The notes: generated by a model not told the origin, from the letters alone. Counted from the stretch's first letter, positions 1-59,581 are shown. The stretch: 59,700 nt of DNA from Alistipes finegoldii (GCA_963614045.1 CAVEBU010000004.1:1-59700), one strand, 5' to 3'. Translations and numbers: made by a program.

Positions 1-786
<786 letters not shown>

Positions 787-3224: not shown

Positions 3225-3277
3225 CCTATTTTCTCCATATAACATAGTATACAAAAATTCGACAAGTTAAGTCAAGC

Positions 3278-3315
3278 AAAAAAGAAAAAACTTTGATAAA
3301 TTCACAAAGTTTTTT
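3278..3315 (-). terminator. rho-independent terminator after the U32 gene
   Basis: Stem AAAACTTTG/CAAAGTTTT with a 9-nt loop. Followed on the minus strand by TTTTTTCTTTTTT. Confidence 0.55.
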
Positions 3316-3331
3316 GATAATTTAAAAAATT

Positions 3332-4573
3332 TTAAAGTTTTTTCTGCTTTTTCTTGCGTAAAATATCGCCCGCACGCAATTCAAACGGACACTTTAATTT
3401 AAGTTGCTGTTGCACAAGCATTGCGTCAGTTACGACTTCGCCGTCCGAATTGTACATTTCGCCAACCGCAAAAGTCTTATTAAATGTATCTCGTGGCGAC
3501 AAAATTTCCAACTCGTCACCAACTGCGAAACGATTCCGCTGTTCCACAACCGCAAAACCGTCCACGCTATCACCAATTACTTGCGCCACAAAATCGTATG
3601 TTGACACAGGCTGGCTAGATTCGAGGAATTCCTTATCGCCCTCGTGCAAGAAAAATCCTGTCGTAAATCTACGATGGCTACACTTTTCTAACTCACAAAC
3701 ACGGTTTGGGTCAATTTTGTACGAAGCAGGGTTCTGCTCCAACAAATCAACCGCACGCCTATAGGTGTTTACAACATTTGCGACGTAGTAAGGGGACTTC
3801 ATACGACCTTCAATCTTAAAACTCGTAACACCCGCATCAGCTAATTTGTCGAGGTAGTTTACCATACACAAATCTTTACTATTAAGGATATAGGTACTAC
3901 GTTCATCTTGTTGAATCTCGTACTCCTCACCTTGTCCCGACTCTTTGCGACATTTTTCCGTAATGTAGTATTCCCAACGGCACGCTTGCACGCAAGCACC
4001 ACGATTGCTATCACGCCCCGTAAAATAGTTGCTTAGCAAACATCTTCCACTGTAACTTATACACATCGCACCATGCACAAACGCTTCTAGTTCAATTTGA
4101 GGTGGCAGGTAATCACGAATTTCCTTTATTTCTTCAATACTCAACTCACGTGCCAAAATTATCCTAGTTGCGCCCGCATCAGCCCAGAATTTCGCCGAAT
4201 ATTTATTTGTCGCACATGCTTGCGTGGATAAGTGAATTGGTAAATTCGGAGCAACTTCTTTGCACAAACTCATAATTCCCGCATCGGACACAATCACCGC
4301 ATCAGCGCCGATTTCTTGCAAATACACAAGGTAATCTGACAGCCCAACAAAGTCGCTATTGTGCGCTTGAATATTTACCGTAATGTACGCTTTCTTGCCC
4401 AAACTATGCGCAAAATCAATATATTCACGCAATTCGTCTTCCTCAAAATTCTCACTAAAGGCACGCAAACCCCACTTTTTGCCCGCAAAATAGCAGGCAT
4501 CAGCACCGAAATAGTAAGCTGTCTTTAATTTTTCTATGTCGCCAGCGGGCGCTAAAATTTCTAATTTACTCAT
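3332..4573 (-). CDS. peptidase U32 family protein (YrrO/YegQ-like; candidate RNA hydroxylation factor)
   Basis: 413 aa. N-terminal LEILAPAGD...AGADA, Cys-containing CISYSGRCLLSNY and GACVQACRW blocks typical of U32. Overlaps the upstream methyltransferase gene by 8 nt. Confidence 0.85.
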   Translation of the reverse strand: MSKLEILAPAGDIEKLKTAYYFGADACYFAGKKWGLRAFSENFEEDELREYIDFAHSLGKKAYITVNIQAHNSDFVGLSDYLVYLQEIGADAVIVSDAGIMSLCKEVAPNLPIHLSTQACATNKYSAKFWADAGATRIILARELSIEEIKEIRDYLPPQIELEAFVHGAMCISYSGRCLLSNYFTGRDSNRGACVQACRWEYYITEKCRKESGQGEEYEIQQDERSTYILNSKDLCMVNYLDKLADAGVTSFKIEGRMKSPYYVANVVNTYRRAVDLLEQNPASYKIDPNRVCELEKCSHRRFTTGFFLHEGDKEFLESSQPVSTYDFVAQVIGDSVDGFAVVEQRNRFAVGDELEILSPRDTFNKTFAVGEMYNSDGEVVTDAMLVQQQLKLKCPFELRAGDILRKKKQKKL

Positions 4574-41857: not shown

Positions 41858-42706
41858 TTACCGCTTTTTGCTCGTTTTTTGCTTAAAATCACTCAATTTC
41901 GATACAAACTCACGCAATTTCTCCATTTTGTTCTCGTGTAGTAATTCACTAATTTTTTGATATTCAAACTCACTTTCTTGTTGCTTTTTAATTGCTAAGT
42001 CCAACCTACTTTGAAGTATTTTGTTTTGCGCTTTTAACTCGTTGATTAAAACCGATTTTTTTCTATTATCTATAGCCACATCCATAAGCCTCGAATTGTC
42101 CAATTTTAATTGATAGTTTTGCTTATCCTCAAGCTCTTGTTCCGCCGACCTTTTTACCAGTCTAACCAGCCCCAAAAACAGCGATTGAATCTCTTTCTCA
42201 GATAGATAATTTCTATCCGTTTTTTGACTCGGAATTGTTAAAATTTTGCCACCCAAATTTAGTCTACTTTTCTGCCCTGAAGCAGTAATTTCTGCTGTTA
42301 ATTTTTTAACAAAATCGGGCTTGTTTTTAAGCGTGTTGCGATACTTGTTTTGATACCTAATCGCCGTTGTTTTATCCCCACCCGCAAGCATAAAACAAGT
42401 CGCCCTCACGCTCTTGCCGTTTTCTAACAAAATCGACTTCAAAAGAGCAGTCTCTTCCCTCTCACAAAAGTGACTCGTGTACCCAAGTTTTATGTCGTAT
42501 TTTGTTAAAATTTCACGCACTGAATTGTTACATTTTGCTTCACGAATCAGTCTGTAATAAAAGTTGCGCACGCTATAAATATTTCGCTTGTGATGACTAG
42601 CAAAATTACCAAAAATAGATAGCAAATTCGTTTCCCTTTTACTATTTATAGCATCGACAAGTTCTGCCACTTCATTAATACTCCAACCCAAAATTTTCTC
42701 TTGCAT
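41858..42706 (-). CDS. hypothetical protein with Myb/SANT-like N-terminal repeats and a C-terminal coiled coil
   Basis: Start moved to ATG 42706 (GAGGT RBS). The two segments WSINEVAELV...NIYSVRNFYYRLIRE and EETALLKSIL...TAIRYQNKYRNTLK look like Myb-like HTH repeats. The family assignment is tentative. Confidence 0.35.
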   Translation of the reverse strand: MQEKILGWSINEVAELVDAINSKRETNLLSIFGNFASHHKRNIYSVRNFYYRLIREAKCNNSVREILTKYDIKLGYTSHFCEREETALLKSILLENGKSVRATCFMLAGGDKTTAIRYQNKYRNTLKNKPDFVKKLTAEITASGQKSRLNLGGKILTIPSQKTDRNYLSEKEIQSLFLGLVRLVKRSAEQELEDKQNYQLKLDNSRLMDVAIDNRKKSVLINELKAQNKILQSRLDLAIKKQQESEFEYQKISELLHENKMEKLREFVSKLSDFKQKTSKKR

Positions 42707-42806
42707 TTTTACCTCGCTGACAAAATTTTTAACAAAATTTATATTTTTAATCAAAAAAGTAATAAATTTAGCATAAAAAATAATAAAATACTACGAGGTC
42801 AAATTT

Positions 42807-43775
42807 ATGTCAAATATCCACTTACATTTATGCAGTACAATGCCTGCAGTATTTTGTATCAATAACGAACAAGTCGGCTACTGTGAAAATTTGTGTCAGT
42901 ACCTAGATGTTTTGGTTTGTCAAGAAAAATTCGTGCTGTACGTTCATCCGATTGACCAAATAGCAAACACACACTGTTCACTATCCTATTCAACGCAAAT
43001 CAACTGTAATTCCCCAAAACCAGTTGCAAATACAAATCTAATCACAATAACCGATTATGGACACAATCACTATGTAATTTGCGCAACCCCGCTTCTAGTT
43101 CCAAGGATAACAAATATTCCGCCCTGCTATGACACTTGTGACACTTGCACAATGTCTATCATTAATCAAAATCTCAACATAACTAATGCACAGCATAATT
43201 TTAATTTTAACTTGCAAACACCACTAAAAACCGCAAAAATGCAAAAAATTGATGATTTTTACGCAATTTTAGGCAAAAATTATGATAATTCGTCCTATAT
43301 TATGCTATTGAACAAAAAATTGCAACTGCTTTTTGATTGCTATGCGGACAAAATTGAAGTTGGCAATTCGCAAATTATTGCTTTAGAATATGCGCACAAT
43401 ATAGCCCAGCATGGCAAAGTTACGGAATACTCTTTTGCAAGCGGAAACGTAAAAAAAGAAAAAACTTACACTGTTTACACGCAAAATATACCGACCGCTC
43501 CCGCAAATTCATACGCTATTCCTTATGCGTTTTTGCAAGCCGTAAACCTGCTCGACTTCTCTCTTGCTCGAAGTTATCTTCACCCAACACTAAACCAAAC
43601 GCTTCAAAACGACAATATTCGCAACTTTTTTGGCGATTTTATTGATATTACACCGACTTTTACGCAAAATCACGATTGTTTGGCACTCGTCTACTCGGGC
43701 AATCCGCAATTCGTAAAAAATTATCGCTTCACACTTAGCCAAAACTTAATAAAAAATATTGAATCGTTTGATTGA
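42807..43775 (+). CDS. hypothetical protein, Cys-rich N-terminal third
   Basis: 322-aa ORF with a GAGGT RBS 8 nt upstream. No motif recognised. Confidence 0.5.
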   Translation: MSNIHLHLCSTMPAVFCINNEQVGYCENLCQYLDVLVCQEKFVLYVHPIDQIANTHCSLSYSTQINCNSPKPVANTNLITITDYGHNHYVICATPLLVPRITNIPPCYDTCDTCTMSIINQNLNITNAQHNFNFNLQTPLKTAKMQKIDDFYAILGKNYDNSSYIMLLNKKLQLLFDCYADKIEVGNSQIIALEYAHNIAQHGKVTEYSFASGNVKKEKTYTVYTQNIPTAPANSYAIPYAFLQAVNLLDFSLARSYLHPTLNQTLQNDNIRNFFGDFIDITPTFTQNHDCLALVYSGNPQFVKNYRFTLSQNLIKNIESFD

Positions 43776-44719: not shown

Positions 44720-45517
44720 TCATTGTGGTTTAAGCGTAATTGCGTCATTTGATAGTACAATTTTCGCTTTTAGCGTATTTTTTAACTCTTCTAAGTATGA
44801 AAACGGCAAGTATGCCAATTTCTTTTGCAAGCTTTCGTTGTATTTCGTATCACCAAAAATCTTCTTTAAGCAGTATTCATTATCCTCGCCCGTCAACTTA
44901 TTGATTGTATAATTATACATTTTTACAGGCTCGAGAAGACTTAGGTCAATAGTCGATTTTGCGACGAGAAAGACGTAATCGGGAACAGTTTTTATGCGCA
45001 CGAAATTTGATATATCTTTGCCTTTGAATTGATAAACAATCGTGTACTCAATCTTCTGATTTGTGATTTCCCATTCAAGACGATTAATCGTAGCATAGCT
45101 CATAACAATCTCAAGATTATCGTCTGATAACACTGAATTTGCGTTTCTTTGCGAGCAGTAAATTGCAAAATCGTACCACTTCAAAGCCCAATCTTTCACC
45201 AGCCGACTTTCCGAACTATTTAAGACAGCAAAATTTACTTCCCCCGCCTCACTGCAAACAGCTTCGCTACCTGTCGCATCACGGATTTTACTCGCAAATT
45301 CAGGCTTGAGTTTACTCACGTTGTCAGAAAAAGCAGTACTATCGAATTTTTGATTGACGAGCCTTTGAAATTCCGAATCCACACCGTTGCGACCGTTCAA
45401 ATATGCCATCAAAATCGCCATCGCTCCCGCCAGCAACAGCAAAAGAACGCATACCAGACCATACCACCAACACCCCTTTTTGCCCTTTTCTCCGTTTTTT
45501 TTCTTCATCAAACCCAT
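44720..45517 (-). CDS. membrane-anchored hypothetical protein
   Basis: 265 aa with a basic N-terminus followed by one TM helix (WWYGLVCVLLLLLAGAMAILMAY). The alternative ATG 45508 has better RBS spacing. Confidence 0.5.
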   Translation of the reverse strand: MGLMKKKNGEKGKKGCWWYGLVCVLLLLLAGAMAILMAYLNGRNGVDSEFQRLVNQKFDSTAFSDNVSKLKPEFASKIRDATGSEAVCSEAGEVNFAVLNSSESRLVKDWALKWYDFAIYCSQRNANSVLSDDNLEIVMSYATINRLEWEITNQKIEYTIVYQFKGKDISNFVRIKTVPDYVFLVAKSTIDLSLLEPVKMYNYTINKLTGEDNEYCLKKIFGDTKYNESLQKKLAYLPFSYLEELKNTLKAKIVLSNDAITLKPQ

Positions 45518-45720: not shown

Positions 45721-45747
45721 AAAAACCCTTTATTTACGGGCTTTTTG

Positions 45748-45788
45748 TGGTGCGCTAAAGAAAACTCGAACTCCTAACCTTTGGTTCC
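45748..45788 (-). pseudogene. tRNA-Arg 3'-half fragment (anticodon position 36 to CCA), diverged
   Basis: 41 nt align with tRNA positions from GGAACCAAAGG... to ...GCGCACCA with 6 mismatches, all in the T-loop/T-stem 3' strand and the acceptor 3' strand. No matching 5' half. Confidence 0.75.
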
Positions 45789-45949
45789 TGTTTTGCCAAA
45801 GCAAAGTGCCGTCGCAAGCCTTGACACCACTTGCAAGCAATTGTGTCAATCTCCTTGCTAGGCATACCCCAACGCACACACTTCGCGACGCTTCAGCCGA
45901 ACGTAATGCAATTTCGTTTGCGGTCTACGAAACCAAAGGGGTTATATAA

Positions 45950-45976
45950 ACAAAAAACGCTGTCCATATAGACAGC
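45950..45976 (-). terminator. short hairpin plus T-run inside unit 1
   Basis: GCTGTC-TATATG-GACAGC followed by GTTTTTTG on the minus strand. Confidence 0.45.
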
Positions 45977-45980
45977 ATTT

Positions 45981-46021
45981 TGGTGCGCTAAAGAAAACTC
46001 GAACTCCTAACCTTTGGTTCC
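45981..46021 (-). pseudogene. tRNA-Arg 3'-half fragment, second copy
   Basis: Same as 45748-45788. Confidence 0.75.
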
Positions 46022-46182
46022 TGTTTTGCCAAAGCAAAGTGCCGTCGCAAGCCTTGACACCACTTGCAAGCAATTGTGTCAATCTCCTTGCTAGGCATAC
46101 CCCAACGCACACACTTCGCGACGCTTCAGCCGAACGTAATGCAATTTCGTTTGCGGTCTACGAAACCAAAGGGGTTATATAA

Positions 46183-46209
46183 ACAAAAAACGCTGTCCAT
46201 ATAGACAGC
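46183..46209 (-). terminator. short hairpin plus T-run 4 nt after the tRNA-Arg CCA end
   Basis: GCTGTC-TATATG-GACAGC followed by GTTTTTTG on the minus strand. Confidence 0.5.
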
Positions 46210-46213
46210 ATTT

Positions 46214-46290
46214 TGGTGCGCCATAAGAGGCTCGAACTCCTAACCTTTGGTTCCGTAGACCAACGCTCTATCCAATTGAGCTAATGGCGC
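46214..46290 (-). tRNA. tRNA-Arg (anticodon ACG), CCA encoded
   Basis: Minus-strand sequence GCGCCAT-TA-GCTC-AATTGGATA-GAGC-G-TTGGT-CTACGGA-ACCAA-AGGTT-AGGAG-TTCGAGC-CTCTT-ATGGCGC-ACCA folds as a canonical 77-nt cloverleaf. Confidence 0.95.
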
Positions 46291-46363: not shown

Positions 46364-46730
46364 TAATTTTGCCCAAAAAATTTTTACAAATATTTTAAAT
46401 TATCAAGAAAAACCGCCGAAGTTTGAAAAACTATCCCTCGTTAAGTCGTAAAATTACTTTGCTATTACCTTGCAAGCCCCCTTTTTTACTCAATCGCCAC
46501 CAAACACGTCTAATAATTACCCTGCAAGCGCAATTATTAACTATTGCGACAAAAAAGATTAGCGAATCACTCCCCTAAACGAACAGCGAATTATTTGCCG
46601 TTTCGTCTTAAGATTGACTTGCTAATCTTTTTGCAATAAAGCATAGTTTGTGGTTTTTGCTTGACTTTTGTACGCTATTTGCGTTTAATATAACAAATTT
46701 CAAGCCGTTGCGTCATCAATTTGTCTTATC

Positions 46731-49700
46731 TCAACTTGTACTAGTATAACCTATAAATTTATCGCCAGCATAAGTGCGTTCAGTGTGCTTACTACTAAGG
46801 TCAACACTTAGTGTTTTTGTAACTTTCGGTGTCCTAAAGCATGCTTCAAAGCCCGATCGAACATACAACGTTACGTTATAATTTGCGTAGTTGGAATCGC
46901 CCGCCAGCGTAATCGAAGTCGCCGTACTTATGCTTGAGGTACTATCCGAACTGGTAAATACTTTCTTGGTACATGTGGTTTCGCTCGAATTCTTTTTCCA
47001 TCCGTATTTCCAATTAGCGTTGAGCAAATATCCGTCAGCATTTGTAAATGTAGCACTAAGGTTAGTAACATATACATATTTTGCGGTGTAATATGTTTTT
47101 GCATACACCCTAGTACCTTTAGTATAAGTCTCGCCTGCTTTCAAAACACCGCCTTCAGTCTCGGAATCGGAAGACAAGCTAATCGTCGGCGCATACGAAC
47201 TTGGCACGATGAATTTCGCTTTAGTTTCAACATATGTGCCTGGCGCTAAGAGGTTGTATCCCGAACCGATAGATTCTTGCACTGGATAAATGTAGAACGT
47301 ATTGTATCCCGCTTGGATATACCCTTTGTTGTTCGAAGTTACGCAACCTAGCGTGGTTAGTTGAGTAACTTTTCCGTCGATAGCGTCACCCGCAGAACCC
47401 GTAAGGAAGCAGTCCGCATAACTCTTGTTGAAATTCCAATTGTAGTTAAACACGTAATTCGACCCGCTCGAAGATTGAGTCATAGATTGACGAGATGACA
47501 ACGTGGATGTTGAAGTATTTTCCACCAATCTTTGCGCCAAAGCCACATTCATCTTGGAAATAGTCAAATTGTTACCGATTGAGGCCTTAATTGTCAAATA
47601 CGAATTGCTTTGAGACGATTGTGTTGCCGAAGCGGTAATATCCGTAGCGCCAATTTGCTTGTAGTACTCAAATACAAAGCCGTCTCTTACGCTCGAAGCT
47701 TCAGCATTTTCAAGGTCGTTTAATAAACGAACGCTATAAGTATATTTTCCGCCGATTACCGAACTATTAATAAACACAGTATTAATAAAGTCGTAAATCA
47801 CGTCAGGGTAACAGGTTTTACCTTCGTTTTGTTTTACGTTGAATGTTTTTGTGACGTTCCCTTTACCCAGATTATATGTAAATTCCGCCGAACTTACTGC
47901 AGAGTTGTAATCAGTAGGTGCTTGAGAGGTTATAGCAATATTACTTTTCTTGAAAGCACCAACTGTGCGGGCGGTTTTGTCAACATCCATATTGATTTTT
48001 ATCGCTGAAATATCGTTAAAGATCTTCAATTTTGGACTGTATGTCCTTGTAAAACTATTGAAACCACGAGTAACTTTGGATTCTAGCAAAGTTTCGTCCG
48101 CATTTGCGTAAATGGAAATATTCCAAACGCTTCCCAACAGCCATTGATTCAAGTCTGAATTACTCAAATTCGTCCCGTACTGGTCATTTTTCAAAATTTC
48201 CGCAAGGTTGACGATGTGCCACCCCGCTGCGCTAGGATTTTGCGCACAAACAGAGCCGACTGTATCATAAGAATACACGAAATTCCCTGTGGAATTCTCG
48301 TTTTTCCTAGTCAAAACTACACGATATTCCACAGTCTTGCTAATCGTGTTGAACCTAAATGGAATATAGTTTTGATAGTAGTAATAATATCCGCAATCAG
48401 CGTATAATCTTGCAAAGTATTGCGAATTTTCCTCTAGCGTTGCCTCGCTTGCATTAAACGATGTTTCCACCGTTTCAAGCCTTACATAGAATGCTAAATC
48501 AGTTTCCGCACCATAGTCACTACTTACCCAATAACCCGCCGAATCGGTGTCTACAGGTGCTACAACTTTGACTTTCGCCGAAACAACTCCGCCATGATAA
48601 TCGCTACTTGTTCCGTTAACTAACTTGTACAAAGTTTGATACAAGCAAGCAACTTCGTACGGATAAACATCTCCGCCTTTATCGTAATCGTATCTAGTCG
48701 CATTAGAATTAACTGCTTTTGCAAATTCACGCATAATTGTATTAATGTCTTTTGTCGCAAATTCGCAAGATACTGTTGTGCCGTTGTAGGTAAATTCCAC
48801 AACATAATTCGTGTCTTGTCTATTAGTTAGCCCAACATACTCAAAGCCGAAGTTTGCATCTCCGCTTCCTTGTGCGTTGATTTCTCTATAAGTGCTTCCG
48901 CTAACGTACAAGTAAGGGTTAAGCGCCATACCAGAGTAATTGCCACTGCCTAATACGTTTGTAATCGTGTTGTTGGAAGTTCTTTGAGTACTATCCGCAC
49001 TAATCAACTGATCAGATTCAGCATTGTCAAACATAAATGTAACTTTGGGCGCAGAATATTGTTTCCTTATGCCCAAACTTACTTGTTCACTTGCTTCACT
49101 TGTGGCAAAATTGTATGAAGGGTTGCTATAGTCAAGCTCGCCCGTTGTCGTTTCGCTCGCAGTTGCCTCGTCCATAACAGCGGTAACAGTGAAATATACC
49201 TTATTTGGAAGTTGGCTATCAAGCCAATTATACAACGCAACCGCATTAGTAGCAGTGCAGTATTTATTCAAAATTACATAACTCTTGTCGCCGTCATTTT
49301 GAATTGGCAAAATCACGCTTTGCTCTTGCGAAAGTTTGCTCAAATCAGTGTAATCAATTATGCCGTTAGCGAAGTTGCTGTATTCAAAAGTTGATACACC
49401 GAGCCTAATATACTTGTTTTTACAAATCGCCTCGTTCGTGCTAGAGACGCTGTTTAAATAGAACTTGTATGTATACTCGCCGTTAGAATTTGCAGTAATG
49501 TAGCCCGAAATTACTCCGCTATTAGAATTTGTGTAGTCAATCACGCAATTCCCGTTTTCGCTATACAAATCACTTGCGCCGTCGTTGTTGTAAATTTCGA
49601 TTTTTTCAATACTAGGTTGCTTAAAGCGAACTGTGTGCTTAAACGTAAAGTAATAACTTGGGTTTAAGCAGTTAAAGTCTGCTAGCGCAATATTCTGCAC

Positions 49701-52700
49701 AACACCTTGCTCTTTAAGAGCCTCGACATACGCCTCCACTTCGGCATTATCTTGTGTAAGGTATGTTCTCACCCATTTTTCGCCATATAATTCAACATCT
49801 TCTAGCAAGCCATCAGCCGACACAAACGCATTTGCGTTCAAATCGTTGTTGTTTATCCACGATTTAATCTTGCAATAATATGTGACAGGAATGTTTGCGT
49901 TGTAGTTTAGCAATTCGGATAGCGTAAACCCGTAAATTCTAATTGAAGAATTTTCTAGTTCGCCGATTTGCCGTAAAGTTCCGTCAGCGTTACGCAAATA
50001 TTCCAAAGGTTGATTCTTGCCTACGGTGTATTGCGAGTTATCTACCACATATAGCGGTAATTTCTTCCCTTTTGCTGAAGCGTTATCAAGCGTGGTAATG
50101 ATATAGTGTGCAAGGTAAGTTCCGTTCTCCTCCTGCTCCACAGTCCACATATTATTTGAACCTGCGTTTGCGTCTAACGTGTTGTAGACAAACAATTCAA
50201 AACCGTTATTGTAGTTGTTTGTATCTTGCAAACTTGTGATTTCGTAAACTTGCTTGTTCTCAAAATCTTCTTCATCTTCAGTCACATAGTCACAACCATT
50301 TAATAGGTGCACTTCCGTCCCGTAATGTTGCGCAGAAATTGTCTTGTATAGATATTCTTGCGGAATACTCGTTTCGGAACTTAAGTAGTAACTAATATTC
50401 GGGTCGTTTTCCGTCAAAGATTGCGGTGTAAGGTATATAAAGAATTTATACTTGCCGTTAACGTCAAGCCCAAAACTTCCGTTTTCGTCAATATAGCAAG
50501 CCCTACCGTCTAGCGAATTAACTTCGCCGTTCCTAAGCAAATTCCCCATTACAAAGCCATAACTAGATGTTTGATTACGGAGTGCTGTTTCGTTTTGCAA
50601 GAAGAATTGCTTGTCACTTGCACTAGCATAAGCGTTATCACAACTATATGTGCCACTTGCATTTTGCTTGAACGCAAAAATGTTGATTTTATAAGCAAGT
50701 TCGGTGTCCACAATATGCGTGTATTGATTTGGAGTAAGCGCCCAATTTAGCACAAAAGCATATCCCGAATCAACTTGCGTTATTCCCAAGCGATAATCAA
50801 GAATAGGCGTTGGAAGTGCTACATAGTGGCAAATGTCGCTATTTAGGTATAGTGTATCACTCGAAGCCCCGTTTTCGTCCTCACAAATCATATACTCAAG
50901 TGCGTACACACCAGCATAATTCAAGCCGTCAAAGAAGTCGTGAATATCAATGCGAACGTTATAGTAGTCCTCCACTCCGTCAAGACGATAAATCCAACAG
51001 TTTCCGTCCTCGCTTTGAATGTAATTCTTACTGCTTGTTAGCAAATCAGCAAGACTCGGCAAACTATATGTGAATTCGTAAATTCTATCCGTCACATAAC
51101 TCGTGCCGTCCCTTAATTTTACACTAACCATAACTTTCTTTGGCATATGCAAAGTGCCGTTAAAGTCCCTAATTGCGTACACGTTAAAACTCAAAATCGC
51201 TTCTTTGTGCTTTGCGTTAGCCCAATTTCTATCGTCCTGCCCATTTACTGTCACAGTCGTGGTGTCTTGTGACTTGGTGGTTAAATACTCGCCGTAAAGC
51301 GAGGTTTTTGCCTCATCAACGACTTCCCAAACGTTCTTAACTTCGTGCGTAACGTACGCAACTGAAGGCTTGAAGTATTGGTGCGCCGTTGCGCTGAATT
51401 CCACCTTGACAAAGTACTCGCCCGCAATAAAGTTTTCCCCGCTTAGCCACTCGCTAGATTTACCCAAACTCTTGATAGCACTAATTAAATCGTAACTAAA
51501 TTTCAGCGAGTCTAAATTATTCAGGTCAACCTCAATTCCACTCAAAACTATGCTAACCGAATCGATATCGCTACCCAAAATCGTATCAAAATTAGCGTTT
51601 TCGTCCAAAGTTATAGCAGTATCCTTGCTAACACGCAACAAACTAATAGTGAATTTCGCATTTGAGTCGTTCGCTAGCAATTCGGTTGCCACTTTTCCCA
51701 AAATATCCTCGTTTGCCGTAATGCTATAGTCAAGCTCGCTCTTCGCTGTCCACGAAGCAGAGATTTCTGGCATTTGCTTGAATTTGTCAAACCCGACAAA
51801 CTCCGCAAGTGCAGGCTCGCTGTCAAGATAGTATTCGCTTTTCAAAACCCTACTAACGCTAACTTCGTTTCTGTCCTCGCCACCCGCAACCAAATATTTT
51901 GTAAGGTCAATTTGGCGGGCTGTGGTTGGGTCAAGAGTTATAACATTTAATAGCGATTTGTCGGACGCTTTGTAAGTTTTTATCACTACCCTAAAAGTAG
52001 GTTGAGTCGTTTGAGTGGTGTACTTGTATCCCAAGGCGTCGTCGTATTGCCACGAAAGTATGCCGTTTGTATTAATTTTTGCATCATAAGGCGCAACAGG
52101 GAATTTTATATCCTTGTAAATAAACTTGTTGCCATAATTTTTGTTTGCTGGGTCAAAAATTCTATCCTTAGCCACATTTCCGTCTTTATCAAGAGCAGTT
52201 GCGGTGATTTGATAGTAATATTCGCCCGCAAGGTAATAACTCTCACTCGCTCTTGTTGTGGTGTCAAAGAAGAATTTTGTCATATCAAAGTACATACAGC
52301 CGTCACTTGTCACAAGCATAAACAAATTATCGTCGTTTTGAGTCAACGAGTAAACAGTTTTCCCGTCCACAATTTCAAGCTTGAGTCGAACGGTTTTGGT
52401 AACTTCCTTGCCTTGTGTATCTTTTAGCAAAACGGAATATTGCGCCGTCATATCGTACGCATTTGTAGGCAAAGTCCACATAAGTGAGCCATTAATCTTG
52501 TAGGCGGTGTTTTTATCCATATTTGCGCTGGTGATTTCAGTCACAACGCAAGTTCCAGCCCCGCCACTGCTAGCGAATTCTGGCATTGCGGTCGTGAACA
52601 CAAAGGACGCCGTTTCGACGCTGTTACTACTTAAGTAATAATCCGTGTTGTCCGCTCCGTCCGAAGCAGTTTGGCGAATCACAAACCAAACTTCGTGCGG

Positions 52701-55700
52701 TCCAATTGTGCTAATTAAATCGTACATGGCAATGCCCAAGTTCGCTTCAGTTTCGTCCGTACTTAAATTCGCAAACGTGCCGAATTTCGTGGCTGTTTTG
52801 GTAGTTGCTGTTTCGTAGTAGTCGTAGTACATAACGTCAACTGAATACTTCTTGTCACTACTTGCGTTGCCAAAAGTTACGTTAATTTTGTTGATATTGT
52901 GGTTTGCTTTGTCGCTGTAACCCAATTCCACACGAGGATCGCTAGGTGTTGCGAATTTCTGATAAAGTTCAAGGTCAAAGGTTACCGTAAGTGCTGATTG
53001 AGCCGTCAAGTTATCAAGCCTATAGTAATCGCCATTTTCCGCCACATAGTAGTAGTAATCCAACATTTCATCGTTTGTGTACGGCATAAGCGAAATCGTA
53101 TTTGCTCCCGCCGTCACGAACCTACTAATGTTGAATTGCGTTGCGTTTTTAATGTTCTCAAAATCGACACTTGCAATTCCGTTAGTTTTGCTTATAACCC
53201 CGAAATCCTGCCCGTTGATTTTTACCATAAAACTTGTCGCTCTGTTTTGTTGCGCACCCGCCTCAGTAATGATTAATTGCTTTCTGTTAAAGTCGTACAA
53301 CTGCTCATAAGCTTGTAGATATTGCGCTTTATCCTGTTCGTTTTCACCAAACACGATTTCGCCGTCTTTAATGTTATTGGATCCAAAGAAGCACTCTGGC
53401 GCAACGACAAAAGCGCTAGCCGTTACCTTAATCACGCCAAACATATTTTTGTACGTGCTACCAAATTCTACCACGTCGGAAGCGGAATAATGTTCTTCAT
53501 CTACACCCAAAATCTGAATCGTAACCTTGTATTCGCCCGCCGATAATTCTCTTGTCGGGTCGTAGCCCAGACTTGTTCCGCTTATCAAATCAAGTCCCGC
53601 AAAGGTCAAACTGTATGCGTAATACGTGCTAAGTAGTGTCTGCTTTTCGGTTGCTGTAAATTGATTTTCGCCAACTTTCCCCATATCAACAAGCACACTT
53701 TTCCCCGTCGCTATGCTTACAAAATTGATAGCAAAACGGTTTTTTGCGAGATTTTGCGCATAGTTCCAAGTAAGAGTTGTCGCAAAGTCACCTGTTTTAT
53801 TCCCCGTCGTGCTGATTTTGGTGGTGTTGACCGCAATCGAATCCATTTTAACCGTATGCACGAAGTCTAGCTTGCACTCGCTTGCCCCGTCAGCGTAAAT
53901 TTTCTTAGTCGAATTTGTCGAAGCCTTTACAAAAATCGTGTACTCACCCGCCGAAAGCGAACTAAAGTTAACTGTAAAATTCGTGCTGACCGCCTCAGTG
54001 TTGATACTGTCAGCTGTTCCCTCTAATACGCTTTCCGAACCGCCTTTTTTAACGATTCGCCACTCGTAATCAGTCACGTATGGGATATTTGTGACGGTTG
54101 CTTGGTTGTTTGTTTCATCAATTGTGACAGCCGTTGGTGAAGAAGTAATCACAAGCGGTAAAGTCACATTGCCGTTGCTCGTAAGCCCTTTGTAAGCCAC
54201 AAGCGTCTTGCCGTCAATCGTGCAGACTGCATCGGAAATCGCAATTGTATATTTAGCGTTCTGTCCCTTGTTTGCGACAATCAGCCTTTTAATGTCGTCA
54301 GCATCTATTGTAAATTGCGGATTTGAGCTTGCACTTGCAACAACACTGCCCGCAATACTTACCTCGTAAGTTTGCCCGCCAAACAAGTTGCTGTTGTTGT
54401 TCTGGTGAGTGATTTTGCCGATATATTTGCCGTCTTCGTAGTCAACTACCAAAGTTGCGCCCGTCGTGTTAAGTGAATAGATATAGTAGTCGCCAGCTCT
54501 TCCCGTAAAGGACGCTTGCTCCGTTCCGTTTAAGGTTACTTTTACGCCCGTAATCTCGAAATGCACCAAGTACGCCTGCTTGTCGTAATCATCGGGCAGA
54601 GTAATTGTTGCGTTTGCGTTTTTTGTCGTGCCGTCCGTAGTTTGTGAACTCGTGCTGTCTGCATTTTGTATAGTCACTGTGTAGCTATAAGTCGTTTCGT
54701 AATCGCTTGAGTCGTAAGTACTGTCGCCCGTCCACTTCACGTTAACTTGATTGCCTGTCGATTTCTCAAAAATGAAGTTTTGCGGTGAAGCCACTTGCCC
54801 GATTGTATATACGTAGGTCGTTTCGCTCGCCAAACACAAGTTTGTTGCGTCTTGCGGTTGTGCAGTGATAACAAATGTTAGCACCAAGTTAGACTGAGGA
54901 GATTCGCCCAAAACCGCTTGCAAAATTCCCTTATTTTCGGTCACGCTTGCGTAATTTAGCGTGCATATTTGCCTACTAGCAGACGTCGTGGACGCACCCT
55001 CCATATTGAATTTGTAAGTCGTGCCGTTATACTCGAAACTCAACACTGCGGAGTATTTAATCACGCTTGCATTTTCGTCACTAATTGGGTCGAAAGCGAC
55101 GCTAATGCTCTTTTGCGCTTCGCTATAAACTCTGCTGTATTGGATATTCTTGACATTGTCAACTGAAGTAGCGCAAGTAATTGTCGCCGAATCGTCACTC
55201 CAAAGGCTTGCAACGTAAGTTCCGTTATTTGACGCACGAATTCTAACCTCATACGTGCCACGAACGTTCTTGAGCATATCAGCAGTTATTTTCGCCTCGC
55301 CATCGCTAACAGTCACCGCATCGGCTTGTCTAATTAAACTCCCGTTTTGGTAGAAACCAATATCAATTCGCTTTGCGTTCTCGCCAAGATTGGTGTTGGT
55401 AACTTTAAGTGTAACGCTAGTTTTTGCCGAAACAACCGTTCCGCCCGAAATCTTAAATGATGGCTTAGCAAGTTGCTTTTGATAAGGTAGGCTCGCAGAA
55501 GTTTCACTACTTGCCACAATCAGTTCCCCGTCAGCGTAAATCGATGACTCGCTATATGCTTTTGTGCGGAAGTAGACACGATAAACACTATCCGTCTGCT
55601 CTCTCATCCACGACTTAACCTCTTCACTTAATTGCGTGCTAAGTGTCGTACCGTCCCCCGCTAACTCAAACCAAGCCACACTGCCGTCCACTGAGTAAAA

Positions 55701-58700
55701 TTCGCCACGCAAATTGCTAATGCTCGCCTCGACACTCAATTTCACGTCGCTTTCGTTCCTGCCATTTTGAATAGTCGCAGTCACAGAGTCGCAAGTTAGC
55801 GTAATGGTGTCGGTTTCCAAATCTTGTTTTGCGGAAACGTTCGCAGGTTTGTCAGCAGTGACGATATTAATGTATTCACAAATCGCTTCACCGCTTTCGC
55901 TTACAACCACATTATCATTTAGTCGCACCGCTTTTAAGGTCACCACGAATTTGCCCGCTTGGGTGATATCTAGCGCAACATATTGAAAAATGTCACTGTT
56001 GGAAGTTTTGAGAATTTCCTCTGCTTTCCCGCCGTTCAGTGTCAAAATATACTTATCGGCAAGGCTGTTTTTGAGGATTTTTGCGACAACTTTATTCACA
56101 AGTGTTGTGTCCGTTCCGCCATACTTGACGACCTCAAAAGTCGGGGTCGCTAGCGTCAATACCCATGTATGCGTAACTGCGTTTGCGTCCGTAATATGAG
56201 AGTCGCTGTTGGTTGCTTGCACGCTAAATTTGTACGTCCCCAAACCATACTTGCTAAACAAATTAATCGTGTTCAGCCGAATTACCGCCGTACTGCCGTC
56301 CACGTATTCGTCAAAATTCAAACTAACATCTTGCACCGCTACACCGTTAAAAGTAACTGCAATCGTGTAGCCGTCCGCACCAAACACCGAATTCCACTGC
56401 AAATAAGTTTCGTCGTCCGCATGCCTAAAACTTTCCACGTCCACATCATCTAAATCGATAATGAACTGATAATCGATTTGCGAATTTGCTTCCGCTCCAG
56501 AAATTGCGTAAATTTTCGCCCAAATCGTGTATTCGCCCGCATCAAGAGTTGTTGATTCGTCGCCGTTTATTAGTTTAGTAAGCGAATAAACCAGCTTGCC
56601 GTCCGTCAAGTCACTTTCGCCCGTTTCGTCGTCATAAAGTTCGCTATGAGTGATAGTTCCGCTCTTTAAAGTACGCCCAGCCTTGCTGATTTTGTACTCA
56701 ACTTTTTGCGTAAACTTCAGCGATTTCGAGTCGAATTCGAACGTCAAAACGTCACCTTTCGCCGTAATGGTCGGCGCAGTTATGCAAAAGTCGTTCGTAA
56801 TCTCGTCCGTAACGGCCTTGTATTGCGTGATAAATTCTTGCGTCACTAACTTTTCATCAACGACACTTGCACCCGCATAAATCGTTATGTTCGTCGTCGA
56901 GTATAACGGCAAATCGTCCGTCATATTCGCTAGATAGTACACAACACCGTCGGAAACGGTCATATTTTGAGGGGTTTTGTCGCCAAACTGAATTGCAAAA
57001 TCGGTAACTCTTGAATCGAATTGCGGAATGCTTACCTTGATTTTGTTCGTTTCCCCGCTTATGAGTTCATAAGAAATCTCGACGTCGTCCGCACTTGTTA
57101 TCGTGTAAGTGTACTCATAAGTCGTTGCAACAAACTCGCTCGCTTCGTATTCGTCCGTCATCGCAAGACAGTTAATCTTGAAAGTGTTCTTCCCCAACGT
57201 GAGCGAATTCGTGATATTCAATTTGTTTTCGTTTGCCGTCCAGCTCGTCCCGTTTACCCAAATCCCATATGCTCGAGCGGTAGGAACGGCTGTCCAACGT
57301 GCTTCAACTGAATTGCCGTCGTCAAGTTTAACAAACTCAATCGAATTCACATCCACCGCCGAATGCTTCAAAATATCAATGTATTTATACTCGACTGCGT
57401 TACTGTCGATTACTTGCACATTTTCGCCCGTCGGCGCAAGTGCGATAAGTTTGAAATTGTAGGCTTTCGGCTGAGTCACTTTGCCTAATAACGCTTGGAT
57501 TTGCGTTGTGTCCTCGATTAATTGCCCCGCTTGATACAGGTTAGGCTGAGAGAAATTTAGAGTCGTTGCGTCCAAATCCTCGCCCGTAATCGTAAGGCGG
57601 TAGCCCGTCGCTCCCACTGTGCCATAGAACGAAAATTTAATCGTGCTTGTGCCGTCGTTCAAATTCGCACGCACGCACTTTAACCCCGTTGGCGAATCGA
57701 TTCTTTCCTTGTACAAGAAGAACACTGACTCCGTCTTTTCGGACGAATTGAAGAATTTGCTGTAATTAGTTTTTGGAATCGTCACTACAGAAATCGCATA
57801 CCAGCCTGTCGCCTTATTGTTACGCTTCAGCGCCTCAGTTAAGTTGACGCTAGTACTATTCGCACCCGAAACAGTCACGCCAAAGGCAAAAGCGCTTTCT
57901 TTTCCCTCCGCCGTTGCTTGATAAATCACGCACGAATACCCGTCAATGTAATCATCTAGCCCAACATTTATGCCGTCAAGCACCCAATTCGCCGTAAGGT
58001 TCTCCTCGTCCGAATTTACACTCAAATTTGCGACGCTTTCAAGGGTTGTTTTGACACTGCCCTCCTCGCTCCACTCGGAAAAATCACCATCCGTCACAAA
58101 TTCATGTTCCGCTCTCGCACACGCTTTTATTTGCACCCGAACGAAATCATACGCAAAATCGTTATCTAGCGCCCTGGTGTAGCGGTTGCCGACGTTATTG
58201 TCAATCGTGGCAAAGGTCACGAATTGCCCCGTCGTCCCCTCTCGCCCTTGCAAAACAATTAAGTAATCGCTAGCAAGCGGAATTTCCGCCCAATCCACGT
58301 TTAGCATCGTGCCGACCATAGAAACTTTTATCGAGTCGGCGGAAATCGTGCTTAATTTTTGGGTGATTGAATACGAAATAACGTTGCTTGCAAACTTATT
58401 CGAATCCATTCCCTCCATAGCAATCGCAACACCAACAACATAGACAGTATGCCCGCCCAAGACATTTCGGCTTGCGATATCGTTTAGCGTAAACGTGAAA
58501 TTTTGTTGCCCGCCAATTTCCGTTTTGGAAATCGTCCGCACCGCACTGCCGTCCAAGTAAATCACGTATTCATTTATATACTGGTCAACGTTCCAAGTGA
58601 TTTGCCGAACGTCCGAAAGCAGAGTTTTTGGATTTTCTGCAAAATTCGCACTCAACGTAGGCGCAACAATCTCGCTCGCTTTGGAGTAAGTCTTGCACTC

Positions 58701-59384
58701 GCTAAAATCACTGTTGGTAATGTATTCGTTAATCTCTTGCTTGTTAGGGTCGTATGCCGTCGCACAAACTTTCACCTTAAACATAGTCACGTCAGGGTGG
58801 CTTGCGACGTAATTAGACAAGTCAAATTCAGTCGAAGTCGAATAAACCGTTTCTGTAGGCGTGTTTGTCGCCTCGATTAACAGCATATAACTTTTTGCCT
58901 CAGTAACCTGCTTCCAACTAAACACCTTTTCGCTAATCATAACATCGCTTGGCGTGTCAAGTTTAAGCGTTTTCGCCTTGTAGACAGGCTTAGATTCTAG
59001 CGAGTGAAACACTGGCAAACTGTGTATAGCACGAACAGTAAAGGAGTGCTTCCCGACCGTCGCATACTTATGTAAATCGATATAATTCGTCTGCGTGGAC
59101 TCAGTACTTTTGCCGTCAATAATGACGTTATAGCTTATTGCACCGCTCACCGAATCCCACCTTAGAACCCAGTCATCACTTATTGCCAAATTATTCGGCG
59201 CACTCAACCGCTCAGTACGGTTAATTTCGTCCAAACCGCCACTGTTTTTGTTATTTACAATTGCCAAAACGCCACCAACGGCGACCCCGACAAATACCAA
59301 AACTGCGACTATTATTCCTGCAATCTTTTTTGCATTTAACATACTTTTACCCCAATTTTTAAGTGACAATAAATCTTTCCTCAA
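46731..59384 (-). CDS. giant (4217 aa) N-terminally anchored surface protein of tandem FN3/Ig-like modules
   Basis: Single uninterrupted 12,654-nt ORF. TM/signal-anchor IAGIIVAVLVFVGVAVGGVLAIV lies near the N-terminus. Recurrent ~100-130-aa modules carry the W..V..A..Y.(I/V) signature (e.g. LRWDSVSGAISYNVIIDG, FSWKQVTEAKSYMLLIE, ARWTAVPTARAYGIWVNG, LQWNSVFGADGYTIAVTF). No LPXTG or other C-terminal anchor. The start is TTG 59384 or, better on RBS spacing, ATG 59342. Confidence 0.8.
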   Translation of the reverse strand: MRKDLLSLKNWGKSMLNAKKIAGIIVAVLVFVGVAVGGVLAIVNNKNSGGLDEINRTERLSAPNNLAISDDWVLRWDSVSGAISYNVIIDGKSTESTQTNYIDLHKYATVGKHSFTVRAIHSLPVFHSLESKPVYKAKTLKLDTPSDVMISEKVFSWKQVTEAKSYMLLIEATNTPTETVYSTSTEFDLSNYVASHPDVTMFKVKVCATAYDPNKQEINEYITNSDFSECKTYSKASEIVAPTLSANFAENPKTLLSDVRQITWNVDQYINEYVIYLDGSAVRTISKTEIGGQQNFTFTLNDIASRNVLGGHTVYVVGVAIAMEGMDSNKFASNVISYSITQKLSTISADSIKVSMVGTMLNVDWAEIPLASDYLIVLQGREGTTGQFVTFATIDNNVGNRYTRALDNDFAYDFVRVQIKACARAEHEFVTDGDFSEWSEEGSVKTTLESVANLSVNSDEENLTANWVLDGINVGLDDYIDGYSCVIYQATAEGKESAFAFGVTVSGANSTSVNLTEALKRNNKATGWYAISVVTIPKTNYSKFFNSSEKTESVFFLYKERIDSPTGLKCVRANLNDGTSTIKFSFYGTVGATGYRLTITGEDLDATTLNFSQPNLYQAGQLIEDTTQIQALLGKVTQPKAYNFKLIALAPTGENVQVIDSNAVEYKYIDILKHSAVDVNSIEFVKLDDGNSVEARWTAVPTARAYGIWVNGTSWTANENKLNITNSLTLGKNTFKINCLAMTDEYEASEFVATTYEYTYTITSADDVEISYELISGETNKIKVSIPQFDSRVTDFAIQFGDKTPQNMTVSDGVVYYLANMTDDLPLYSTTNITIYAGASVVDEKLVTQEFITQYKAVTDEITNDFCITAPTITAKGDVLTFEFDSKSLKFTQKVEYKISKAGRTLKSGTITHSELYDDETGESDLTDGKLVYSLTKLINGDESTTLDAGEYTIWAKIYAISGAEANSQIDYQFIIDLDDVDVESFRHADDETYLQWNSVFGADGYTIAVTFNGVAVQDVSLNFDEYVDGSTAVIRLNTINLFSKYGLGTYKFSVQATNSDSHITDANAVTHTWVLTLATPTFEVVKYGGTDTTLVNKVVAKILKNSLADKYILTLNGGKAEEILKTSNSDIFQYVALDITQAGKFVVTLKAVRLNDNVVVSESGEAICEYINIVTADKPANVSAKQDLETDTITLTCDSVTATIQNGRNESDVKLSVEASISNLRGEFYSVDGSVAWFELAGDGTTLSTQLSEEVKSWMREQTDSVYRVYFRTKAYSESSIYADGELIVASSETSASLPYQKQLAKPSFKISGGTVVSAKTSVTLKVTNTNLGENAKRIDIGFYQNGSLIRQADAVTVSDGEAKITADMLKNVRGTYEVRIRASNNGTYVASLWSDDSATITCATSVDNVKNIQYSRVYSEAQKSISVAFDPISDENASVIKYSAVLSFEYNGTTYKFNMEGASTTSASRQICTLNYASVTENKGILQAVLGESPQSNLVLTFVITAQPQDATNLCLASETTYVYTIGQVASPQNFIFEKSTGNQVNVKWTGDSTYDSSDYETTYSYTVTIQNADSTSSQTTDGTTKNANATITLPDDYDKQAYLVHFEITGVKVTLNGTEQASFTGRAGDYYIYSLNTTGATLVVDYEDGKYIGKITHQNNNSNLFGGQTYEVSIAGSVVASASSNPQFTIDADDIKRLIVANKGQNAKYTIAISDAVCTIDGKTLVAYKGLTSNGNVTLPLVITSSPTAVTIDETNNQATVTNIPYVTDYEWRIVKKGGSESVLEGTADSINTEAVSTNFTVNFSSLSAGEYTIFVKASTNSTKKIYADGASECKLDFVHTVKMDSIAVNTTKISTTGNKTGDFATTLTWNYAQNLAKNRFAINFVSIATGKSVLVDMGKVGENQFTATEKQTLLSTYYAYSLTFAGLDLISGTSLGYDPTRELSAGEYKVTIQILGVDEEHYSASDVVEFGSTYKNMFGVIKVTASAFVVAPECFFGSNNIKDGEIVFGENEQDKAQYLQAYEQLYDFNRKQLIITEAGAQQNRATSFMVKINGQDFGVISKTNGIASVDFENIKNATQFNISRFVTAGANTISLMPYTNDEMLDYYYYVAENGDYYRLDNLTAQSALTVTFDLELYQKFATPSDPRVELGYSDKANHNINKINVTFGNASSDKKYSVDVMYYDYYETATTKTATKFGTFANLSTDETEANLGIAMYDLISTIGPHEVWFVIRQTASDGADNTDYYLSSNSVETASFVFTTAMPEFASSGGAGTCVVTEITSANMDKNTAYKINGSLMWTLPTNAYDMTAQYSVLLKDTQGKEVTKTVRLKLEIVDGKTVYSLTQNDDNLFMLVTSDGCMYFDMTKFFFDTTTRASESYYLAGEYYYQITATALDKDGNVAKDRIFDPANKNYGNKFIYKDIKFPVAPYDAKINTNGILSWQYDDALGYKYTTQTTQPTFRVVIKTYKASDKSLLNVITLDPTTARQIDLTKYLVAGGEDRNEVSVSRVLKSEYYLDSEPALAEFVGFDKFKQMPEISASWTAKSELDYSITANEDILGKVATELLANDSNAKFTISLLRVSKDTAITLDENANFDTILGSDIDSVSIVLSGIEVDLNNLDSLKFSYDLISAIKSLGKSSEWLSGENFIAGEYFVKVEFSATAHQYFKPSVAYVTHEVKNVWEVVDEAKTSLYGEYLTTKSQDTTTVTVNGQDDRNWANAKHKEAILSFNVYAIRDFNGTLHMPKKVMVSVKLRDGTSYVTDRIYEFTYSLPSLADLLTSSKNYIQSEDGNCWIYRLDGVEDYYNVRIDIHDFFDGLNYAGVYALEYMICEDENGASSDTLYLNSDICHYVALPTPILDYRLGITQVDSGYAFVLNWALTPNQYTHIVDTELAYKINIFAFKQNASGTYSCDNAYASASDKQFFLQNETALRNQTSSYGFVMGNLLRNGEVNSLDGRACYIDENGSFGLDVNGKYKFFIYLTPQSLTENDPNISYYLSSETSIPQEYLYKTISAQHYGTEVHLLNGCDYVTEDEEDFENKQVYEITSLQDTNNYNNGFELFVYNTLDANAGSNNMWTVEQEENGTYLAHYIITTLDNASAKGKKLPLYVVDNSQYTVGKNQPLEYLRNADGTLRQIGELENSSIRIYGFTLSELLNYNANIPVTYYCKIKSWINNNDLNANAFVSADGLLEDVELYGEKWVRTYLTQDNAEVEAYVEALKEQGVVQNIALADFNCLNPSYYFTFKHTVRFKQPSIEKIEIYNNDGASDLYSENGNCVIDYTNSNSGVISGYITANSNGEYTYKFYLNSVSSTNEAICKNKYIRLGVSTFEYSNFANGIIDYTDLSKLSQEQSVILPIQNDGDKSYVILNKYCTATNAVALYNWLDSQLPNKVYFTVTAVMDEATASETTTGELDYSNPSYNFATSEASEQVSLGIRKQYSAPKVTFMFDNAESDQLISADSTQRTSNNTITNVLGSGNYSGMALNPYLYVSGSTYREINAQGSGDANFGFEYVGLTNRQDTNYVVEFTYNGTTVSCEFATKDINTIMREFAKAVNSNATRYDYDKGGDVYPYEVACLYQTLYKLVNGTSSDYHGGVVSAKVKVVAPVDTDSAGYWVSSDYGAETDLAFYVRLETVETSFNASEATLEENSQYFARLYADCGYYYYYQNYIPFRFNTISKTVEYRVVLTRKNENSTGNFVYSYDTVGSVCAQNPSAAGWHIVNLAEILKNDQYGTNLSNSDLNQWLLGSVWNISIYANADETLLESKVTRGFNSFTRTYSPKLKIFNDISAIKINMDVDKTARTVGAFKKSNIAITSQAPTDYNSAVSSAEFTYNLGKGNVTKTFNVKQNEGKTCYPDVIYDFINTVFINSSVIGGKYTYSVRLLNDLENAEASSVRDGFVFEYYKQIGATDITASATQSSQSNSYLTIKASIGNNLTISKMNVALAQRLVENTSTSTLSSRQSMTQSSSGSNYVFNYNWNFNKSYADCFLTGSAGDAIDGKVTQLTTLGCVTSNNKGYIQAGYNTFYIYPVQESIGSGYNLLAPGTYVETKAKFIVPSSYAPTISLSSDSETEGGVLKAGETYTKGTRVYAKTYYTAKYVYVTNLSATFTNADGYLLNANWKYGWKKNSSETTCTKKVFTSSDSTSSISTATSITLAGDSNYANYNVTLYVRSGFEACFRTPKVTKTLSVDLSSKHTERTYAGDKFIGYTSTS

Positions 59385-59533
59385 ACCCCTTAAAATTCCG
59401 CAAAGTATCTTAAAGTTGCTCGCCCGAATTCAAAACCGAATCGCCCGCAACCAAAGGACTTTGGGCTGTGTTTGGGATAAGAAATCTCCGCCCGAATTAC
59501 CGCCAAATTTATCTCAATTTATTATCCACAATA

Positions 59534-59562
59534 ATTATACAAAAATACAAAAAATAGGTCAA
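59534..59562 (-). promoter_or_regulatory. sigma-A type promoter of the giant gene
   Basis: Minus strand: TTGACC (59557-59562), 17-nt spacer, TATAAT (59534-59539). Predicts a 5' UTR of roughly 140-185 nt. Confidence 0.55.
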
Positions 59563-59581
59563 ATAAATTGACCTACTTTTT
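59555..59581. terminator. bidirectional hairpin terminator overlapping the -35 of the giant-gene promoter
   Basis: TAGGTCAA-ATAAA-TTGACCTA, with CTTTTT on the plus strand and a T-rich run on the minus strand. Confidence 0.5.

Follow-up and report, generated by a model that had tools for sequence, protein, structure and literature searches.

The window analysed here, the whole 59,700-nucleotide stretch CAVEBU010000004.1:1-59700 (assembly GCA_963614045.1), is an entire contig (C4) of a 1.09-Mb genome assembly, G000, which comprises 41 contigs and is 93.5% complete. Its minus strand carries the gene of a giant surface protein that very likely forms a membrane-tethered fibre of fibronectin type III (FN3) modules, and for which attachment is the best, if unproven, reading of function. 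An earlier inspection of this DNA, referred to below as the sequence-only reading, had described one open reading frame (ORF) at 46731-59384; this frame is indeed uninterrupted over its 12,654 nt and encodes 4217 amino acids (aa) when counted from a TTG codon. Translation most likely begins at the ATG at 59342, because 13 of 13 orthologues begin at an ATG placed 5-7 residues ahead of their membrane helix, with N-termini of the form M-S/T-K-x-x-K-I followed by the helix. The coding sequence would then span 46734..59342 (minus strand, 4203 aa), with the stop codon at 46731-46733 and with TTG 59369 and TTG 59384 as alternative upstream starts. The public database entry uses the first of these two (4212 aa). 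Residue numbers refer to the 4203-aa form unless stated otherwise.

The gene is real: its frame is intact, and purifying selection acts on it. When 40 related genomes were searched in six frames, 13 of the 16 species genomes of the same genus yielded frames of 4,200-4,620 codons that are open and collinear with it. In the closest orthologue pair (94% identical), the synonymous divergence (dS) is 0.31 and the nonsynonymous divergence (dN) 0.035, which gives a dN/dS of 0.11 that stays at or below 0.22 in each 300-codon window. On these grounds, the gene is neither a pseudogene nor a product of mis-assembly. The location of the gene at a contig end, 316 nt from the edge, and its lack of any Pfam or NCBIfam match could point to a non-functional frame, be it an assembly artefact, a decaying pseudogene or a frame open by chance, but this explanation is ruled out by the 13 independent assemblies of different species, with collinear frames of 4,179-4,623 aa and no stops, and by the dN/dS value; the confident AlphaFold folds described below and the lack of DNA repeats able to collapse in assembly also speak against it, and the likelihood left to it is negligible. 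Stops or frameshifts in independent assemblies had been named by the sequence-only reading as the evidence that would undo its claim, which stands in view of these 13 open frames. Its further view that the modules form an old, maintained array rather than a recent amplification is supported by the orthologues, by the dN/dS and by Tandem Repeats Finder, which reported no DNA repeats within the gene.

At the N-terminus, a predicted signal-anchor (59247..59327, minus strand) consists of a single transmembrane helix of about 24-27 hydrophobic residues, with Lys-Lys before it. It belongs to the sole strongly hydrophobic segment of the protein (residues 14-46 of the 4217-aa form), which holds the only Kyte-Doolittle window above 1.6 in the whole sequence. 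This helix is kept in all orthologues, among which no conserved Ala-x-Ala cleavage motif was found at the N-terminus, and it is probably an uncleaved anchor. The C-terminal end has no hydrophobic segment, and no LPXTG-like motif (LPx[TSA][GAN]) occurs anywhere in the protein, which therefore does not look like a sortase-anchored LPXTG surface protein. A sortase gene (PF04203) was not found in the 93.5%-complete genome, control genomes being positive, and its absence fits anchoring by the N-terminus. Likewise, no S-layer-homology (SLH), choline-binding or other Pfam domain was detected in the protein. The single N-terminal helix and the lack of LPXTG, choline-binding, S-layer-homology or other C-terminal anchors thus agree with what had been predicted, and the motif scan, the single helix and the missing sortase gene also support the proposed projection from the membrane by the N-terminus. 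Among its residues, Thr (10.1%), Ser (9.3%), Asn (7.4%) and Tyr (6.5%) are abundant.

The membrane-near part of the protein, residues 48-2520 (51783..59201, minus strand), is a stalk of diverged FN3 modules, with beta-sandwich modules that escaped detection between them. When 110-residue tile profiles were built from the orthologue alignment, cross-matches to other tiles were found almost only in residues 40-2100. After eight rounds, a hidden Markov model of the module, seeded on the first module and iterated on 14 giant proteins, recognised 12 copies in this protein, of which the last covers 2417-2520; in each relative it recognised 12-16. The modules share about 18% mean column identity among themselves. 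Based on profile comparison, they can be classified as true, very diverged FN3 domains, because a profile of 100 modules matches fibronectin (E 8.4e-7) and tenascin-R (2.6e-6) in the PDB, as well as Fn3 domains of bacteria and numerous engineered scaffolds of the FN3 type. By contrast, the Pfam fn3 model (PF00041) had no match in the whole protein at E <= 1, and none in the whole genome at E <= 0.001. The assignment to FN3 thus comes from remote homology and from the fold, no match to the Pfam fn3 model being above the gathering score. The sequence-only reading had proposed dozens of FN3/Ig (immunoglobulin)-like modules, recognisable by a W-x2-V-x2-A-x2-Y-x-[IVL] signature. The nature of the modules is confirmed by the PDB profile matches and by the structural models, but not their recognition by the dozen through this motif: the motif occurs 4 times in its strict form and 5 times in all with a relaxed pattern, well above the 0.008 expected by chance, but only in the first 1,000 residues, and 12 modules are detectable by profile.

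Structure prediction extends this picture. Two tiles, residues 36-1230 and 2700-3890, were modelled with AlphaFold using alignments of 14 sequences. The first is all-beta, with about twelve sandwiches and a mean predicted local distance difference test score (pLDDT) of 80.9. Its best Foldseek match is the neck of the GhpA fibre (E 7e-23), followed by titin, ROS1, receptors of the gp130 type and fibronectin FN3 4-7. Domain segmentation by profile searches and AlphaFold tiles, the check that had been proposed for this protein, thus yielded no Pfam domain and two tiles made of FN3/Ig-like beta-sandwich chains. Extrapolation from about 96 residues per stalk module, with larger modules distally, suggests some 35-40 modules in total. 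An FN3 domain is about 3.5-4 nm long, and the module count multiplied by this length would give the fibre a reach of about 100 nm or more.

The distal region differs from the stalk. Residues 2700-3890 (47673..51245, minus strand) are predicted to form non-repetitive, enlarged beta-sandwich modules with helical insertions, and the tile profiles revealed no internal sequence repeats in the C-terminal 1,700 residues. The AlphaFold model of this tile (mean pLDDT 71.2) is mostly beta with a few helical insertions, and its single sandwiches reach about 190 residues. Foldseek matched it to sandwich chains of the Ig, FN3 and macroglobulin (MG) types (E 8.5e-12). Conservation in the distal half (about 2200-3800) exceeds that of the stalk and culminates at 2800-3300, residues 2700-3890 being the most conserved part of the protein; the lowest dN/dS of the closest orthologue pair, 0.01, is found at residues 2702-3001. 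An exhaustive search of 1.84 billion cluster representatives with a profile of the distal region returned 14 proteins, all of them giants of 4,179-4,609 aa or their fragments; the same profile found nothing in the PDB. The protein ends in a variable tail, residues 3891-4203 (46734..47672, minus strand), with the lowest conservation and the most gaps, the last 300 residues being the most variable of all. A profile search of the PDB with the tail was empty, and all that the ESM Atlas offered were Ig-like and DUF859 leads of low quality, with scores below 0.9. Orthologue tails are themselves diverse: those of L011, L013, L018 and L020 contain CxxCxGxG motifs, of which the protein studied here has none, whereas in the tail of the G015 orthologue a linker rich in Pro, Ser and Thr precedes a hydrophobic stretch.

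The giant protein is 48% identical to its counterpart in G015 and 28% to that in G007, compared with 70% and 50% for AddA and 95% and 90% for a conserved GTPase; judging from these identities, it evolves much faster than housekeeping proteins. A paralogue, 36% identical, lies in the same genome at positions 1-12744 of contig C1, where it is cut by the contig end. The second copy in G011 (C18:21-8348) has one in-frame TAG, as does the AddA orthologue of G007 (C1:246200-249787), and in G013 AddA is divided over two frames. Sequencing errors or decay could account for these irregularities. In another genus, G101 encodes a collinear relative with 22-25% identity, the same N-terminal anchor and 19 profile-detectable modules, and G131 holds a possible relative. 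With an N-terminal profile, FN3 modules of the giant-protein type were found in 76 of 151 genomes sampled from the taxonomic family, many of them in frames of 3,500-5,400 codons. The protein under study is thus restricted to its clade, whereas giant FN3 proteins as such are common in the family. Genomes of this family measure 0.6-1.4 Mb. The records holding relatives are metagenome-assembled, are labelled Christensenella sp. or Clostridia bacterium, and come from humans (a Hadza-labelled sample included), roe deer rectum and water deer colon. A protein homologue search returned only the giant itself and one 50%-identical protein, an undercount given the many more relatives obtained from the genome searches. 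No papers were found in a literature search on giant proteins in Christensenellales and on UBA4651.

The flanks of the gene carry its expression signals. The near-consensus promoter that had been predicted is confirmed: TTGACC-17-TATAAT at 59562-59534 matches the consensus at 11 of 12 positions. It is embedded in a conserved 45-nt element (59519..59563, minus strand) made of TTGACC, a T-rich spacer, TATAAT and 16 nt downstream containing ATTAT-N5-ATAAT. This element has 0 mismatches upstream of the G015 orthologue and 1-5 mismatches before the paralogue-type genes of G000, G015, G013 and G010. It is identical or nearly so before the giants of four species and of both paralogue types (upstream regions L009-L013), the proteins of which share 32-53% identity and the genes of which are saturated at synonymous sites. 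In its own genome it occurs in two places only, one before each giant paralogue. It is absent from a more distant subclade, where the giant gene follows another long ORF on the same strand. Such conservation suggests either an operator kept across species or a strong promoter under strict constraint. A hairpin at 59582-59548, which overlaps the -35 box, looks like the terminator of an upstream gene.

Between this element and the ATG, the 5' leader measures about 176 nt (59343..59518, minus strand). A leader of 140-185 nt had been predicted and is present in this genome, but little significance can be attached to it: it is 110-130 nt longer than in relatives, where 43-82 nt separate the promoter element from the start codon, and its folding is no better than that of shuffled sequences (z -0.11). 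With this folding score and no Rfam match, a riboswitch or structured leader was rejected; a repeated mobile element was rejected as well, the leader being unique in its genome. On the other side, the predicted long-stem inverted repeat is confirmed as an intrinsic terminator (46545..46631, minus strand), with a long interrupted hairpin (46631-46551) and a T-run; its folding free energy is -34.7 kcal/mol (z -5.39), and 0 of 200 shuffles were as good.

Next to the giant gene, as had been noted, lie a tRNA-Arg(acg) gene (46214-46290, minus strand) and its repeat locus. Two perfect 233-nt tandem copies (45745-45977 and 45978-46210) are located 3' of this tRNA gene. Both include 44 nt copied from the 3' part of the tRNA, at 84% identity to the genuine gene, together with the same terminator hairpin. 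In appearance they resemble either integration-site scars that were duplicated or a 3' flank of the tRNA that was doubled by slippage. The gene order AddAB, giant, tRNA-Arg(acg) is common to this genome and G015. Four ORFs of 265-874 aa without significant Pfam match (32007-34631, 41858-42754, 42807-43775 and 44720-45517) sit between the AddAB genes, a LemA-family gene and the giant gene. At the opposite end, window positions 1-786 hold the 5' half of a 16S rRNA gene on the minus strand, cut by the contig start.

The reading we prefer for this protein is an N-terminally anchored attachment fibre that resembles fibrillar adhesins, with a probability of roughly 0.55. The gene would be transcribed from its own strong, strictly conserved promoter, and transcription would end at the intrinsic terminator. 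The protein of about 4,200 residues would stay on the cytoplasmic membrane through its one N-terminal transmembrane helix, with its N-terminus in the cytoplasm and the remainder exposed outside, as the positive-inside rule predicts. The outer part would be a rod of roughly 35-40 beta-sandwich modules, in which the 2,500 residues near the membrane form a stalk of fast-diverging canonical FN3 modules and the far 1,700 residues consist of larger, non-repeated and better conserved sandwich modules. This far part may be the working end, which would bind a ligand carried by host mucus, by food particles or by another cell. Such a protein would correspond to a fibrillar adhesin of reversed topology, with the anchor N-terminal, the tip C-terminal and a reach on the order of 100 nm.

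Fibrillar adhesins are characterized by large length, a rod-like repetitive region, a surface anchor and an adhesive region, and they evolve fast (PMC9210967). The giant protein displays three of these four hallmarks: it is long, has a rod-like stalk of repeats and is anchored at the surface. For the fourth, Pfam, PDB profile and ESM Atlas searches revealed no known adhesive domain, and the conserved, non-repetitive distal region is the obvious candidate. It shares with the fibrillar adhesins of Gram-positive bacteria (Monzon and Bateman, PMC9210967) the very long chain, the beta-sandwich stalk, the surface anchor, the fast divergence and the richness in Thr and Ser. It differs from them by its anchor, which is an N-terminal transmembrane helix rather than a C-terminal LPXTG sortase signal, by its presumably C-terminal tip, by the lack of a known adhesive domain and by stalk modules too diverged for any Pfam model. 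In periscope proteins, the stalk varies in length between strains through the number of its near-identical tandem repeats. The giant protein is not of this kind, its modules being far from near-identical, as indicated by their mean column identity of about 18% and by the empty Tandem Repeats Finder output.

Several observations weigh against an attachment function. No adhesive domain was recognised by Pfam, NCBIfam, PDB sequence and profile searches or ESM Atlas: against Pfam and NCBIfam, the whole protein gave only a sub-threshold Y_Y_Y match; neither a PDB sequence search with the whole protein nor profile searches with three tiles found anything; and the ESM Atlas, used on two parts, returned nothing beyond weak Ig-like leads below 0.9. 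The structural matches of the distal tile obtained with VIA-align (FN3 triplets, cytokine receptors and SiiE) are only middling, at Z 7-8. The AlphaFold models cover 57% of the protein (residues 36-1230 and 2700-3890). Finally, the protein can be dispensed with, as two near-complete genomes of the same genus, G004 and G014, yielded no match.

The lack of a recognised adhesive domain is also what would be expected if the protein were a structural coat or spacer without a specific ligand, i.e. a brush-like layer replacing an S-layer that keeps phages, host enzymes and other cells away or sets the spacing between cells. The entire modelled length is uniformly beta-sandwich, and the very strong, strictly conserved promoter suggests high expression. 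Several other giant surface proteins are present as well: this genome encodes no fewer than five additional very long proteins, the N-termini of which are of the signal or lipoprotein type. They include two giant lipoproteins of 5,180 and 5,046 aa, 26% identical to each other, the former without any Pfam domain in its first 5,000 residues, and two further long surface proteins of 2,927 and 2,569 aa, the shorter of which has a single Big_2 domain (C1:36367-51906, C10:26868-42005, C8:38611-47391 and C8:29317-37023). Together, the six longest surface proteins, with the two FN3 giants included, occupy about 72 kb, or 6.6% of the DNA. A pure spacer would however not be expected to have a non-repetitive distal half more conserved than its stalk, with a dN/dS as low as 0.01 at 2702-3001, and the failure to find the protein in the two near-complete congeneric genomes also speaks against a coat. 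Overall, the coat or spacer is an unlikely explanation, although it deserves more credit than the other rival, to which the GhpA match leads.

GhpA of Aureispira (PDB 9flp, 9fly and 9flw) is, like the giant protein, several thousand residues long and made of long Ig/FN3-like chains that form an extended surface fibre. Its likeness to the stalk could suggest a contact device of a dependent lifestyle, in which the cell lives attached to microbial or host cells and captures its partner in the manner of a grappling hook, the fibre acting with its tandem paralogue and a neighbouring CxxCxGxG-repeat protein. The very small genome (1.1 Mb, 93.5% complete) fits this idea, as do the FN3-module proteins in 76 of 151 family genomes, many of 3,500-5,400 aa, and the arrangement in G015, where two giants stand in tandem with a DnaJ-type zinc-finger-repeat protein between them. 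Nevertheless, the match to the neck and base of GhpA reflects only shared, generic chains of Ig-like domains (about 11% identity, TM-scores 0.13-0.15). GhpA comes from a Bacteroidota predator, ends in hooks and has a type IX secretion signal; neither a hook domain nor a matching secretion signal was seen in the giant protein, the C-terminal 313 residues of which lie outside the models.

The putative partner in G015 (565 aa, L041:152-1849, G015:C4) is Cys-rich, with five DnaJ_CXXCXGXG stretches according to Pfam and 13 motif copies in 482 residues; it would be unusual for a DnaJ-type zinc-finger repeat to act outside the cell. Such a gene was not found in the assembly studied here, which counts against the contact device. 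A 46-aa ORF fragment at the contig edge (59559-59699) was considered as its homologue and rejected, as BLASTP gave no alignment with the G015 protein. Contigs C1 and C4 might be neighbours with an unassembled stretch, perhaps containing that gene, between them; this guess relies on the paralogue running off the start of C1, on the giant gene at the end of C4 and on the tandem giants of G015. The contig of G013 likewise ends right after its giant gene. All in all, the contact device seems improbable. The same holds for a wider proposal, which we would put forward only tentatively: that giant FN3 fibres are a hallmark of an entire family of uncultured gut Clostridia, whose genomes measure about 1 Mb, and form the apparatus by which these bacteria live obligately attached, as epibionts or bound to a host. 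The conserved, non-repetitive distal 1,700 residues would in this case be a novel ligand-binding unit without relatives beyond the clade, acting with the tandem paralogue and an extracellular CxxCxGxG partner.

The attachment fibre we favour can also be compared with SiiE of Salmonella (PDB 2yn3) and with LapA/RTX adhesins, which consist of tandem Ig-like domains and form fibres of about 100-200 nm; SiiE aligns with the distal tile at a VIA-align Z of 7.2. Type I systems secrete these adhesins, which bear RTX signals at the C-terminus and stay anchored in the outer membrane. The giant protein has instead an N-terminal membrane helix and no Pfam match, RTX (HemolysinCabind) repeats included.

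With respect to novelty, the giant protein represents a new sequence family, without library model or detected relatives outside its clade, of a protein kind that is already familiar. General knowledge of bacterial surface fibres is unchanged by the finding, and bacterial proteins ten times longer are on record (PMC13104272). For annotation, the family is invisible to the Pfam and NCBIfam libraries, so that automated pipelines would leave it without a family name. The profile built here could be used to annotate the clade, and the conserved distal region provides a defined target for binding studies. For the biology of the organism, bacteria with genomes this small use DNA sparingly, yet the giant protein and its paralogue take up about 2.3% of the 1.09-Mb genome and the six longest surface proteins 6.6%. 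Given this large share, giant surface proteins are probably central to the way in which these common, uncultured gut Clostridia hold their niche.

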